From an uncultured Burkholderiales bacterium (GTDB lineage Bacteria; Pseudomonadota; Gammaproteobacteria; Burkholderiales; Burkholderiaceae_C), in assembly GCA_903886485.1 (NCBI GenBank), contig CAISMH010000008.1:9448-73447 (forward strand): a stretch of 64,000 nucleotides of DNA, written 5' to 3'. The position numbers were made by a program, and so were the translations under genes. The notes beneath the pieces are model-generated. The model was not told the origin of the DNA. It searched no databases and saw only the letters and a list, made by a program, of their open reading frames with translations. Shown one piece after another: positions 43,732-47,730 of this stretch. Numbering within the stretch: the stretch's first letter is position 1; each line of letters begins with the position of its first letter.

Positions 43732-46521
43732 TTAATGCGCCTTGTCCCAGTTCGGTCCAACGCCAACTTCTGCGAGCAAAGGCACTTTGAGCTGCGCCAC
43801 GTCCGCCATCAGGCGTGGCACTTCGGTGCGCACCCACGCCACCTCTGACTCGGGCACTTCAAACACCAGTTCATCGTGCACTTGCATGATGACTTTGGTT
43901 TGGCGTTGTTGATCGTCAATGGCTTTTTGCACAGCCACCATGCTCATCTTGATGAGGTCAGCCGCTGTGCCTTGCATGGGCGCGTTGATGGCGGCGCGCT
44001 CTGCGCCTGCGCGACGTGGGCCGTTGGGGCTGTTGATTTCGGGTAAATACAAACGACGACCAAACACGGTTTGCACATAGCCTTGTGCTTTGGCTTGTTC
44101 GCGTGTGTCGTCCATGTAGCGCTTGACGCCTGCGAAGCGTTCGAAATAACGGGTGATGTAATTTTTCGCCGCAGTGTTGTCGATACCCAAGGCCTTGGCC
44201 AAACCAAACGCACTCATGCCATAGATGAGGCCGAAGTTAATCACCTTGGCATAGCGGCGCTGCTCGTTGCTCACCTCACTCACGCCCACACCAAACACTT
44301 CAGAGGCGGTGGCGCGGTGAACATCGAGGCCTTCGTGAAAAGCTTTGACCAAGGCCTCGTCACCACTGATGTGCGCCATGATGCGCAGCTCAATTTGGCT
44401 GTAGTCGGCACTGGCAATCACGCAACCCGCAGGGGCCACGAAGGCCTCGCGCACTTTGCGGCCTTCGGCAGTGCGGATGGGGATGTTCTGCAAGTTGGGG
44501 TCGTTGCTGGACAAGCGGCCCGTCACGGCCACGGCTTGCGCATAGTGCGTGTGGACGCGGCCCGTGCGTGGCACAGCCATGTGTGCGAGCTTGTCGGTGT
44601 AAGTGCCTTTGAGTTTGCTGAGACTGCGGTGTTCCAAAATTTTGGCGGGCAGTGGGTAGTCCTCAGCCAACTTCTCCAACACTTCTTCGTCGGTGCTGCG
44701 CGCGCCAGTGGCAGTTTTTTTGATGACGGGCAAGCCCAGTTTGTCAAAAAAGATTTCGCCCAGTTGCTTGGGGCTGGCCAAGTTAAACGGTTGGCCTGCA
44801 ATTTCATACGCCTCGGTTTCGAGCTGCACGATGCGTTGGCCCAGAGCGTGGCTTTGTGCGGCGAGTGTGGGTGCGTCAATCAACACGCCATTGCGCTCGA
44901 TGCGGTACAAGGCTTCGCTACTGTCGATCTCTAACTGATAGATGAAGCGCAGCTTGTCGTCGGCTTGCAAACGCGGCCACAACACGTGGTGCACATCCAA
45001 GGTCATATCCGAGTCTTCGCACGAATACTCGGTGGCACGCGCCACGTCGACTTGTGAGAACGGAATTTGGTGCGCGCCTTTGCCGCACAGGTCTTCGTAG
45101 TTCAAACCTTTGCGGCCCACATGACGCTCGGCCAAGCTGGCAAGGCCGTGGGGTTTGTGCACTTCCAGCACATAGCTTTGCAGTAGGGTGTCGTGCGCGT
45201 AGCCCTTCACCTCAATGCCGTGGTTGGCCATGACGTGGCGGTCGTACTTGATGTGTTGGCCCAGCTTCTGGATGGCTGGGTTTTCAAACCACGGCTTGAG
45301 TTTGGCCAACACCTCGTTGATGGGCAGTTGCGTGGGCGCGTCGCCATAGCTGTGCGCGAGCGGGATGTAACAGGCCTCGCCGGGGGTGACTGAAAAACTC
45401 AGGCCCACTATCTCGGCGCGCATGGCGTCGAGTGAGGTGGTTTCCGTGTCAAACGCCACCAGCTCAGCCGCATGGAGTTTGGCCAGCCATGTGTCAAACA
45501 TGGCCCAGTCCAGCACGCAGTCGTAATGTTTGGCGGTGACGGCAGACACCGTGGGTTCGGGTTCGTCAAACAGGCTGGGGTTGGGTTCAAACTTCGATCT
45601 CGCTTCTTTGTGGCCCGCCGAGCTGTCTGAGTCCGTGCCTTCGCTGATGGCGCGGGCCAAACCTTTGAAGCCATAGGTTTCATAAAAGGTTTTCAAGCCC
45701 GCTTTGTCAGGCTCAGCCAAGTGCAGCGCGTCAAGTGCAGGCAGGTTGGGAACGTAGGCCGACAAATCACAATCGGTTTTCATCGTCACGAGCTGGCGGC
45801 CCATGGGCAGCCAATCCACAGCTTGGCGCAAGTTCTCGCCCGCCACGCCTTTGATGGCGCTGGCGTTTTGCAGCAAGTTGTCGAGCGAGCCGAATTCCAT
45901 CAGCCACTTGGCCGCGGTCTTGGGACCCACCTTGGCGACGCCGGGCACGTTGTCTACGGTGTCGCCCACCAAGGTTTGGTAGTCGATCATCAGCGCGGGC
46001 GGAACGCCAAACTCAGCAGTCACGCCAGCCACATCGCGTTTTTTGCCGTTCATGGTGTCCATGATGGTGATGTGCTCGTTGACCAATTGGCTCAAGTCTT
46101 TGTCACCACTTGACACCACCACCGTCACGCCTTGTTTGGCCGCGGTGACGGCCAAGGTGGCAATCACGTCGTCGGCCTCGACGCCCGGCACATCGAGCAC
46201 AGTCCAGCCCAGCATGCGCACCATGGCATGGATGGGTTCGATTTGCGCGCGCAAATCATCAGGCATGGGCGAGCGATTGGCTTTGTACGCGGGGTACATC
46301 TCGTCGCGAAAGGTGGGGCCTTTGGCGTCAAACACGCAAGCGGCCAACTGGGTGGGCACTTCTTTGCGCAGGGCTTGCATCATGTTGATCATGCAGCGAA
46401 TGGCCCCGGTGGCGGGGCTGGTCGGGTCACCCGGCACGGCGCGCAGATCGGGCATGGCATGGAAGGCGCGGTAGAGGTAGCTGGAGCCGTCAACCAGCAG
46501 CAATGTTTTGGATTCACTCAT
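43732..46521 (-). CDS. polA: DNA polymerase I
   Basis: LVDGSSYLYRAFHA 5'-exo, FDTETT 3'-exo, DYSQIELR, RRYAKVINFGLIYG, QVHDEL. Confidence 0.99.
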   Translation of the reverse strand: MSESKTLLLVDGSSYLYRAFHAMPDLRAVPGDPTSPATGAIRCMINMMQALRKEVPTQLAACVFDAKGPTFRDEMYPAYKANRSPMPDDLRAQIEPIHAMVRMLGWTVLDVPGVEADDVIATLAVTAAKQGVTVVVSSGDKDLSQLVNEHITIMDTMNGKKRDVAGVTAEFGVPPALMIDYQTLVGDTVDNVPGVAKVGPKTAAKWLMEFGSLDNLLQNASAIKGVAGENLRQAVDWLPMGRQLVTMKTDCDLSAYVPNLPALDALHLAEPDKAGLKTFYETYGFKGLARAISEGTDSDSSAGHKEARSKFEPNPSLFDEPEPTVSAVTAKHYDCVLDWAMFDTWLAKLHAAELVAFDTETTSLDAMRAEIVGLSFSVTPGEACYIPLAHSYGDAPTQLPINEVLAKLKPWFENPAIQKLGQHIKYDRHVMANHGIEVKGYAHDTLLQSYVLEVHKPHGLASLAERHVGRKGLNYEDLCGKGAHQIPFSQVDVARATEYSCEDSDMTLDVHHVLWPRLQADDKLRFIYQLEIDSSEALYRIERNGVLIDAPTLAAQSHALGQRIVQLETEAYEIAGQPFNLASPKQLGEIFFDKLGLPVIKKTATGARSTDEEVLEKLAEDYPLPAKILEHRSLSKLKGTYTDKLAHMAVPRTGRVHTHYAQAVAVTGRLSSNDPNLQNIPIRTAEGRKVREAFVAPAGCVIASADYSQIELRIMAHISGDEALVKAFHEGLDVHRATASEVFGVGVSEVSNEQRRYAKVINFGLIYGMSAFGLAKALGIDNTAAKNYITRYFERFAGVKRYMDDTREQAKAQGYVQTVFGRRLYLPEINSPNGPRRAGAERAAINAPMQGTAADLIKMSMVAVQKAIDDQQRQTKVIMQVHDELVFEVPESEVAWVRTEVPRLMADVAQLKVPLLAEVGVGPNWDKAH

Positions 46522-46534
46522 AACGGTGGATTGT

Positions 46535-46697
46535 GCCTTGTGTGTTTTTTGTTGCTGGGCTCGCTGGACGCGGCGGGCAGGCGTCGCTGCTTCATGCTGG
46601 CGTACCAGAAATCATGGCGACGCCCACCCGCCACGCCCAGTCTGCGGCCTAGGTCTTGGCACAAGAACAACCCCCAAGCGAGCCCAGCACACAAAGC
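46535..46697 (-). ncRNA. Candidate structured ncRNA or palindromic element between polA and thrB
   Basis: 12-bp perfect outer stem (46554-65/46677-88), a 20-bp inner helix (46568-87/46617-36) whose 4 mismatches are all G-U on the minus strand, and an apical CUGG-UACG-CCAG hairpin. Confidence 0.45.
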
Positions 46698-46752
46698 CAA
46701 AGAAGCAAAAGCGCCAACTACAATGTGCGAACTTTCTAACCCCTTGGCAGTC

Positions 46753-47730
46753 ATGGCAGTTTTTACAGAAGTTTCAGAGTCCTCCGCGCAAGAACTGCTG
46801 ACCCAACTCAAACTCGGCGAGTTGGTCGAACTCAAAGGCATCCAAGGTGGCATTGAGAACACCAATTACTTTCTCACCAGCAGCGAGGGCCCCTACGTCC
46901 TCACCCTGTTTGAACGCCTCACCCACGCGCAGCTGCCGTTTTATCTGTACCTGATGAAGCACTTGGCGCAAGGCGGCATTCCTGTGCCAGACCCCGTGTC
47001 CAACCCAGACGGTGACATCTTGCTCACCGTTGAGGGCAAGCCCGCTGCCGTGGTCAACCGCTTGCGAGGTAAAAGCGAACTCAACCCCACCCCCGCCCAT
47101 TGCGCCGCTGTGGGCGACATGCTGGCCCGCATGCACTTGGCGGGTCGCGACTACAAACGCCAACAACCCAACCTGCGTGGCCTTGCATGGTGGAACGAAA
47201 CCGTGCCCGTGGTGCTACCGTATTTGGACGCGGCACAAGCCACGCTCATTCAAACCGAGCTGGCTTACCAAAACCACATCGCCGCGTCATCGGCCTACAC
47301 CGCCCTGCCCCGTGGCCCGATTCATGCCGACTTGTTCCGCGACAACGTGATGTTTGATGGCAGCGCGCAAGCGCCCGAGTTGAGTGGCTTCTTCGACTTT
47401 TACTTTGCGGGCGTGGACACGTGGCTGTTTGATGTGGCCGTGTGTTTGAACGACTGGTGCACCCAACACACCGACGACCTCCATGCCGATGGCACGCACG
47501 ATGCGGCCAAAGCCAAGGCCTTCATCAAGGCCTACCAAGCCGTGCGCCCCTTCACCCCCGCTGAACGCCAGTTGCTCAATCCCATGTTGCGCGCAGGTGC
47601 CTTGCGTTTTTGGACCTCGCGCTTGTGGGACTTCTACCTGCCGCGCGAAGCCAGCATGTTGCAACCCCACGACCCCACGCACTTTGAACGTGTGCTGCGC
47701 CAACGTGTGGCTCATCCTGTCACACTCTGA
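46753..47730 (+). CDS. thrB: Homoserine kinase type II
   Basis: True start MAVFTEVS; GIQGGIENTNY, IHADLFRDN, FFDFYFA, ALRFWTSRL; TACAAT at 46719. Confidence 0.95.
   Translation: MAVFTEVSESSAQELLTQLKLGELVELKGIQGGIENTNYFLTSSEGPYVLTLFERLTHAQLPFYLYLMKHLAQGGIPVPDPVSNPDGDILLTVEGKPAAVVNRLRGKSELNPTPAHCAAVGDMLARMHLAGRDYKRQQPNLRGLAWWNETVPVVLPYLDAAQATLIQTELAYQNHIAASSAYTALPRGPIHADLFRDNVMFDGSAQAPELSGFFDFYFAGVDTWLFDVAVCLNDWCTQHTDDLHADGTHDAAKAKAFIKAYQAVRPFTPAERQLLNPMLRAGALRFWTSRLWDFYLPREASMLQPHDPTHFERVLRQRVAHPVTL

Follow-up and report, generated by a model that had tools for sequence, protein, structure and literature searches.

The stretch of DNA analyzed here (the window) comprises 64,000 nt of contig CAISMH010000008.1 from an uncultured Burkholderiales bacterium, in which the divergent genes polA and thrB are separated by a spacer of about 231 nt. 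A preliminary description of the window had drawn attention to an extensively paired, strand-asymmetric segment in this spacer and had proposed either an unannotated small RNA (sRNA) or a DNA element resembling repetitive extragenic palindromes (REPs). Our analysis indicates with high confidence that positions 46538-46714 are a decaying copy of a non-autonomous repeat, similar to REPs and bacterial interspersed mosaic elements (BIMEs) or to MITEs (miniature inverted-repeat transposable elements), and not an sRNA; the REP-like alternative is hence borne out in kind. The corresponding repeat family is confined to one Burkholderiales family, Comamonadaceae in public records. It is dispersed and insertion-polymorphic, its hairpin is conserved as a structure, and its strand specificity is independent of the genomic context. 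The copy in the window is itself ordinary; what is unusual is the invariant loop which the family carries on a freely varying stem. With this assignment a false sRNA candidate is removed, and 46538-46714 should be masked as a repeat in annotation.

Insertion history of the polA-thrB spacer

The polA-thrB spacer was compared in 30 same-genus genomes, among which those with a 97.5% identical polA N-terminus are referred to as close relatives. In most congeners the spacer measures 55-68 nt, and the motifs ATTGTG(CC) and TACAAT lie 0-4 nt apart. These motifs mark the two borders of the insertion. On the left, ATTGTGCC (46530..46537), which on the minus strand reads CACAAT and resembles a -10 box, precedes the polA ATG by 8 nt and is kept in 30/30 same-genus spacers; ancestrally it stood 0-4 nt from TACAAT. 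On the right, CAAC followed by TACAAT (46715..46724, plus strand), the latter being the -10-like box of thrB (46719-46724), is kept in all same-genus spacers. The conservation of ATTGTG and TACAAT in all 30 spacers fits the earlier assignment of both motifs as the polA and thrB -10 boxes, without proving it.

This one locus provides a clean natural series of empty, full, half and remnant sites. It is empty in L213 (54 nt, ...ATTGTGCC|CAACTACAAT...), while a full two-module element is found in L214 (338 nt) as well as in L212 and L050 (about 400 nt each), the latter from the same-genus genome G119. The window holds a half element (about 231 nt), and L211 and L215 a remnant (126 nt). The inserted element of the window thus spans about 177 nt (46538..46714, with borders uncertain by 1-2 nt owing to a run of C) and represents an internally deleted A-A composite, i.e. 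a pair of A-type modules. It retains the left tail, the outer box, a hairpin, the inner flank and a bit of the central spacer, and continues directly with the final 11 nt of the right hairpin's 3' arm, the right box and the right tail. The preliminary description had reported a perfect 12-bp outer stem, and GCTGGGCTCGCT (46554-46565) is indeed complementary to AGCGAGCCCAGC (46677-46688), with an outer extension in which GCCTTGTGTG (46535-46544) pairs with CACACAAAGC (46688-46697). According to the alignment with the full copies, however, the two arms are the terminal boxes of a composite from which the right hairpin has been deleted almost exactly. Similarly, the two small side hairpins proposed at about 46634-46669 dissolve into the conserved inner flank (CAGTCTGCGGCCTA) followed by the deletion scar, with no conserved structure.

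Filled, empty and collapsed sites are also seen elsewhere. Several of 12 module loci of G119 are empty or collapsed in the genome of the window, e.g. at about position 89180 of its contig C12, where the outer boxes are kept and the hairpin is gone (CTGAGCTCGCTTCGG|CCTGCG). In Polaromonas, a copy separates two genes of the same orientation, of which the downstream gene is presumably tmk as judged from its N-terminus; the spacer measures about 426 nt when filled and 0-46 nt when empty. The same gene pair abuts in some species and is 27-46 nt apart in most others that do not have the element, and one further species shows a collapsed remnant at this site (132-nt spacer).

The comparison also bears on the possibility that the segment is a domesticated DNA element which regulates polA and thrB as a cruciform, as a protein-binding site or through promoter parts supplied by its tails. 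In line with such a role, the element is placed exactly between the -10-like boxes and replaces both upstream promoter halves, its A/C-rich tails occupy the -35/UP positions, and its left module is kept in several species. However, with spacers of 54, 126, 231, 338 and about 400 nt among close relatives, no form of the element is required, and neither a promoter scan nor direct reading reveals a good -35 match in the tails. Moreover, the strand-specific wobble pairing described below would be unexpected for a double-stranded binding site. Domestication at this locus is hence highly improbable. In a sub-lineage of the genus, a two-module element entered between the nearly abutting -10-like boxes; in this genome it later lost its right hairpin, with the left module and both outer ends remaining and the ends now pairing as the outer stem. 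A selfish insertion, now in the course of erosion, has thus split the polA-thrB control region. The present copy displaces the upstream halves of both promoters, which is evidently tolerated. The copy in the window is most probably inert and without a function of its own; among relatives, spacers between 54 and about 400 nt are tolerated.

A dispersed family with a conserved hairpin

A BLAST search of the element against its own genome (G000; 2.49 Mb, 21 contigs) identified a 74% identical stretch on another contig, directly upstream of a pyrC-like amidohydrolase gene, and a third, inverted copy 120 nt away. Common to the three copies is a 22-nt loop (TCATGCTGGNGTACCAGAAATC); their stems differ throughout and are still paired. 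The loop pattern occurs exactly three times in this genome, with no match to a reversed-pattern control. To describe the family, 100 modules of less than 80% pairwise identity were aligned, almost without gaps, on the GAUUUCUGGUAC strand, and a covariance model (R1) was built from this alignment. R1 detects 6 modules in this genome; a congener contains 20 of them, and a Polaromonas genome 61. The preliminary description had named many genomic copies, as of an ordinary REP or MITE, as the finding that would speak against an sRNA, and this is the situation encountered. Within the window R1 has a single match (46550..46654, minus strand, 71.9 bits, E = 6e-17), in agreement with the earlier remark that the window contains no second copy.

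In a survey of 201 genomes of the bacterial family, one per genus, the loop pattern was found in 19, with 1 to 61 copies each and no control match. Outside the family, a search of 148 genomes of the order returned one weak match to the covariance model. Public records with the loop belong to Limnohabitans, Rhodoferax, Polaromonas, Hydrogenophaga, Ca. Aalborgicola and 'Comamonadaceae bacterium'. Judged from shared sub-type boxes, the genome of the window may be that of a Limnohabitans. The carrier genomes are those of abundant freshwater and glacier bacteria, and lake samples contain the window at 97% of sampled words. Copies nearly always occur as inverted pairs, 120-215 nt apart and always with the same strand outward. 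The Polaromonas genome G092 contains about 28 composites with a uniform loop spacing of 154 nt, inside which contig ends fall, and a unit of about 245 nt is present in dozens of copies in most of its congeners. The terminal inverted repeat of full A-A composites comprises the entire module with its tail; A-B and X-Y composites have unlike outer ends. Composites lie in 9 convergent, 13 co-directional and 2 divergent spacers, and clustering of 198 adjoining open reading frames showed that the module neighbors are unrelated housekeeping genes. The promoters and operon spacers hit include those at polA/thrB, pyrC, nrdR, parC/parE and upstream of the probable tmk. The element thus matters for promoter prediction, for the assembly of metagenome-assembled genomes (MAGs), as contigs break in it, and for genome evolution.

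The module of about 105 nt contains 24 consecutive stem positions which are paired in 84-97% of the modules and each of which uses GC, CG, AU and UA. The stem encloses an invariant apex, consisting of C-G, G.A, A.G, U.U, U-A and U.(C/U) followed by the mini-hairpin CUGG-UACN-CCAG; the core GAUUUCUGGUACNCCAGYAUGA is found in 100/100 diverse modules. In the 100-module alignment, 93.5% of the stem cells are paired as compared to 59% after shuffling, and 985 cells show double changes as compared to 282. Accordingly, the covariation score amounts to 0.83, with 0.18 for shuffles and 0.14-0.17 for slid partners. These data also settle the suggestion that the segment is the remnant of a gene for a small secreted protein with a signal-peptide-like minus frame (HIVVGAFASLALCAGLAWG). 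A 115-codon open frame does exist on the minus strand (46518-46865); it runs antisense into thrB, however, and the segment is absent from most congeners. Since the arms of the 100 modules covary with all four Watson-Crick pair types at every stem position and no peptide or reading frame is conserved, this suggestion is already refuted for practical purposes.

In 3/6 copies of the window's own genome the apex is eroded or compensated (CUG/CAG after a double deletion, or loss of the mini-hairpin). The variant modules noted are G000 C20:9456-9559, C17:91453-91550 and C14:58768-58869 as well as G248:C1:1883843-1883983. In one of the variants the apical mini-hairpin has undergone a double deletion that is compensated (CUG-UACC-CAG), two have no mini-hairpin and retain CGAUUUC/GUAUGAG, and one, outside the family, carries a 45-nt apical insertion. 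Since variants keep the internal loop, this loop, and not the tetraloop hairpin, appears to be the most conserved part of the module.

All stems of the preliminary description are located where it had placed them, as confirmed by the spacer sequence and the pairing of the arms. The long helix joins 46564-46587 with 46617-46640 (24 nt, 83% complementary on DNA) and is capped by CTGG-CGTA-CCAG (46597-46608). The minus strand folds better: the polA-thrB spacer, folded as 232 nt, yields -112.3 kcal/mol for the minus strand (z = -4.8, equaled by 0/200 shuffles), as compared to -94.2 kcal/mol for the plus strand (z = -3.1). Only transitions are found among the four mismatches of the helix, and direct reading shows them as G-U on the minus and A-C on the plus strand, as described before.

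This strand asymmetry is real and extends to the whole repeat family. When the arms of 221 distinct modules were compared directly, 365 transition mismatches formed a wobble pair on the GAUUUCUGGUAC strand and 77 on its complement; by module, the wobble leans to the GAUUUCUGGUAC strand in 161 cases and to the opposite strand in 13. The asymmetry is seen only in this direct comparison of the arms, as counts of G-U pairs in minimum-free-energy folds of whole hairpins show none. Relative to the flanking genes, the GAUUUCUGGUAC strand is sense in 45 and antisense in 48 placements, and the wobble ratio is 78:20 for sense, 95:11 for antisense and 88:23 for mixed placements. The ratio is thus independent of gene orientation, so the asymmetry does not stem from host transcription or from selection within host mRNAs. 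This indicates that the element is itself read single-stranded, either as DNA or as an RNA of its own. The apex differs between the strands as well: a tandem G.A can form on the GAUUUCUGGUAC strand, where the complement has C.T mismatches. Regarding a bias in replication strand, judged from local GC skew, a sign test on 67 solo modules gives 22 vs 45 (p = 0.007), while the mean skew of -0.0045 is not significant. Whichever strand is read, the stem of all aligned modules has a G-rich 5' arm and a C-rich 3' arm.

Taken by itself, the better minus-strand fold with its G-U mismatches would also suit a stand-alone sRNA gene, or a cis-acting polA leader, with minus-strand transcription and the hairpin as the functional structure. 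Compensatory changes, a further hallmark of such an RNA, were indeed found: the left-hairpin ortholog of G119 has T-A in place of a G-C pair of the window, a compensatory change, and two A-C mismatches are repaired in it. They belong to the repeat family, however, and not to a polA-specific RNA. The A-type modules found directly upstream of polA, pyrC and nrdR also speak for this reading. Nevertheless, the polA -10-like box lies between the hairpin and the ATG, so that a transcript starting from this box would miss the hairpin; a sigma-70 scan returned 0 sites, and the sole 'terminators' are pieces of the stem. The module is absent from the spacers of most congeners, i.e. present or absent at orthologous sites, and is found in every kind of gene context, in either orientation to its neighbors and with copy numbers of 6 to 61. 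A match to a known RNA family is missing: searches with the Rfam covariance models at permissive thresholds returned miRNA models only, at 17-25 bits vs gathering scores of 70-168. An sRNA or leader is hence very unlikely.

Several points weigh against our interpretation as a decaying mobile repeat. A target-site duplication at polA-thrB amounts at most to an ambiguous GCC blurred by the run of C, and in other filled/empty pairs a duplication is not readable. In principle, the empty site of L213 could reflect a precise loss instead of the ancestral state. The left module is kept, with compensatory change, in at least four species at polA-thrB, and the sites upstream of pyrC and nrdR are also shared between species; judged from the sequences, some copies could be co-opted. 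Among the 198 adjoining open reading frames, no transposase or other mobilizing gene was found beside the copies. The only hint of expression comes from one relative, in which a riverine metatranscriptome contig spans the 5' end of polA and the module and reaches into the spacer, which would also suit an sRNA or leader; the contig is unstranded and may stem from DNA carry-over, and the module may be transcribed in that relative. Finally, the form that is read may be either single-stranded DNA or RNA.

Relation to known repeats and proposed recognition

The modules share several traits with the REP/BIME repeats of enterobacteria and the REPINs (REP doublets) of Pseudomonas. Like these, they are multi-copy, non-coding intergenic palindromes, form head-to-head doublets of two subtypes (here A/B or X/Y, in BIMEs Y/Z), vary patchily in copy number and are probably read as single-stranded hairpins. 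It could thus be assumed that the element is an ordinary REP or REPIN mobilized by the REP-associated tyrosine transposase (RAYT) of its genome. One RAYT-like gene is present here (PF01797, C17:96420-96746; L078 1352-2089), and such a gene was also found in 10/11 element-bearing genomes tested. However, in G000, G119 and G092 this gene is flanked by another repeat (TTAATTGGGGTCAGAnC...AATTA). In addition, RAYT is present in 132/201 family genomes as compared to 19/201 for the module, and in about 15/19 module-bearing vs about 117/182 other genomes (as counted from the listed rows), which indicates no specific association. In REPs the stem and a GTAG-type 5' motif are conserved, whereas the modules have a nearly free stem of about 24 bp, no such motif and an invariant apex. 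They are also larger, with about 105 nt as compared to 20-40 nt. Mobilization as an ordinary REP or REPIN by the resident RAYT is very unlikely. The RAYT-flanking REP reads TTAATTGGGGTCAGAnC(C/T)(C/T)AATTA; one copy lies about 60 nt from the composite at the pyrC locus (L011 2637-2670) and none in the window.

MITEs such as Correia/NEMIS, ERIC and MITEAba12 resemble the composites in their size of 245-430 bp, their non-autonomous nature and their long terminal inverted repeats, in their insertion polymorphism, in bursts to dozens of copies, in insertion into promoters and operon spacers and in decay by internal deletion. In contrast to MITEs, no target-site duplication can be defined here, and a search for a parent insertion sequence sharing the ends found none; furthermore, each inverted repeat is a covarying hairpin, and the stem divergence between copies is far above that usual for MITE copies. 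The ends of IS200/IS605 elements and their PATE derivatives likewise form strand-specific, imperfect hairpins of single-stranded DNA with G-T mismatches on the active strand only. Their short hairpins are non-inverted and on one strand, whereas two hairpins on opposite strands are present here; this genome contains no IS200/IS605 transposase beyond the RAYT-like gene. The family thus falls outside the REP-RAYT type and agrees with the MITE definition only in part. With its conserved apex and free stem, it is the inverse of the REP/MITE design.

A Betaproteobacterial repeat element (BRE) has been described from Polaromonas, Rhodoferax and other Comamonadaceae in the course of an sRNA search (Hot et al. 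2011, PMC3110155). The BRE sequences of about 90 bp in list S1 of that study (TTTGGCCGCGGGCCGCCCAAGGCAAAAAAGCCCCC...) are unrelated to the modules, and BREs are arranged in tandem and do not have the hairpin with a conserved apex, in contrast to the inverted modules (PMC3110155). In the literature searched, the loop sequence matched unrelated primers only, and a description of a MITE, REP or REPIN of this kind in Limnohabitans, Polaromonas or Rhodoferax was not found. The repeat family thus seems to be undescribed so far.

Together, the invariant apex, the free stem and the strand-specific, transcription-independent wobble point to recognition of a single-stranded hairpin by a putative factor. 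We propose that the module is read single-stranded on one strand, GAUUUCUGGUAC...CAUGAG, and that a protein would recognize the invariant apex. By analogy to REP/RAYT and to the ends of IS200/IS605, a DNA hairpin formed during mobilization is favored and an element-borne RNA is less likely. The stem would need only to be paired, and its pairing may be kept either by selection or by correction within the palindrome, while hairpins could be lost through slipped-strand deletion. More tentatively, the modules might be the cis-acting handles of a Comamonadaceae mobilization or maintenance system, a possibility to which we give less than even weight. Here, a protein other than RAYT would read the internal loop, which is invariant and rich in purines (tandem G.A, U.U), on one strand of a hairpin of single-stranded DNA or RNA whose stem may have any sequence, inverting the logic of REPs and MITEs. 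If true, such a system would account for the head-to-head doublets as well as for the exact deletion of hairpins and the occurrence of both centre orientations in the few Polaromonas composites concerned (see below).

An autonomous parent was not found in a partial search, in which the 61 loop copies of G092 proved to be 154-nt pairs or solos with housekeeping genes between the distant ones. As genes flanked by two modules, and hence as candidates for an autonomous element, only an MBL-fold gene and the methyltransferase gene within the 1.7-kb duplication described below came up, and both were rejected.

Anatomy of the window copy and further observations

The copy begins with a G/T-rich left tail (TTGTGTGTTTTTTGTT, 46538..46553), A/C-rich when read outward on the minus strand, which can be aligned with the longer tail seen in full copies and belongs to a 29-nt terminal inverted repeat (76% complementary). 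The left outer box of the A-type module (46554..46565) follows; the same box is found at the A-type modules upstream of pyrC in this genome and in G119. The functional-looking strand of the hairpin module (46550..46654) is the minus strand. As judged from pairing, folding and the module alignment, the stem comprises the 3' arm on this strand (46564..46587; 5' arm on the plus strand) and the 5' arm (46617..46640), which bears the four mismatches. Between them lies the apex (46588..46616), which reads CCAUGAUUUCUGGUACGCCAGCAUGAAGCAG on the minus strand and holds the invariant core at 46592-46613. This core can form G.A, A.G, U.U, U-A and U.Y as well as the mini-hairpin CUGG-UACG-CCAG. The loop-closing pair, usually C-G, is U-A in the window copy, one of 3 such double changes among the 100 modules.

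The inner flank (46641..46654; TCTGCGGCCTAGGT on the plus and ...UAGGCCGCAGA on the minus strand) is conserved in A-type modules and recurs elsewhere; (C/T)AGGCCGCAGTCT is found again beside A-type modules on contig C19 of G000 and in G119. From the alignment with full copies, what is left of the central spacer (CTTGGCACAAGAA) occupies 46655..46667 together with the deletion junction, and about 110-215 nt are gone after TTGGCAC, right hairpin wholly included. The sequence resumes with the final 11 nt (CAACCCCCAAG, 46668..46678, plus strand) of the lost right module's 3' arm, aligning with the right-module ends CTCAACGTCCAAG and CTTAAACCCCAAG of L050 and L214. The right outer box (46677..46688), assigned by pairing and alignment, is the outer end of this lost module. 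The A/C-rich right tail (ACACAAAGCCAAAGAAGCAAAAGCGC, 46689..46714) can be aligned with that of full copies, and its composition is complementary to that of the left tail. In the full composite of L050, inspection by eye shows near spacer position 540-560 a sequence (TGGCACGCCTTCTGCA) close to the sigma-54 -24/-12 motif (TGGCAC-N5-TTGC), which points toward thrB; of this the window retains TTGGCAC only.

Further observations concern composites in other genomes. The Polaromonas G092 composites (L055-L064) have a centre of about 25 nt (TTGAACACAAAGACAGCCCGGCGAC) bracketed by an inverted repeat of its own (GGTAGCGCGCTACCGGTA). Relative to the same X-Y module order, this centre is found in both orientations (flip/flop), with few composites typed and noisy automatic typing. 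A third module sub-type, seen in Comamonadaceae MAGs (L160, L134, L097, L102, L142, L121, L107), has a stem that runs into flanks of the type AATTTCCAATCA.../...TGATTGGAAATT. These flanks faintly resemble the RAYT-associated REP (GGTCAG core), which could indicate a chimera or a shared origin. In a Rhodoferax MAG, a direct duplication of 1.7 kb (L085 1514-1903 and 3250-3639) contains one module per copy and brackets a methyltransferase gene; it could be an assembly artefact or module-mediated. Because the tails are A/C-rich outward, downstream genes such as polA here and the probable tmk in Polaromonas obtain an A/C-rich leader without a Shine-Dalgarno sequence.

The genes on either side of the element are polA (43732..46521, minus strand, 929 aa; Pfam DNA_pol_A, 5_3_exonuc_N and DNA_pol_A_exo1) and thrB, encoding an APH-type homoserine kinase (46753..47730, plus strand, 325 aa; Pfam APH, E = 5e-42). 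Since the polA box ends 8 nt before the ATG, the polA mRNA would be leaderless or nearly so. Throughout the genus, the -10-like boxes stand back to back as GATTGTGCC-N0-4-TACAAT (46522-46537 and 46715-46752 in the window; L213, L217-L239). Here, ATTGT...ACAAT constitutes an inverted repeat which could be an operator.

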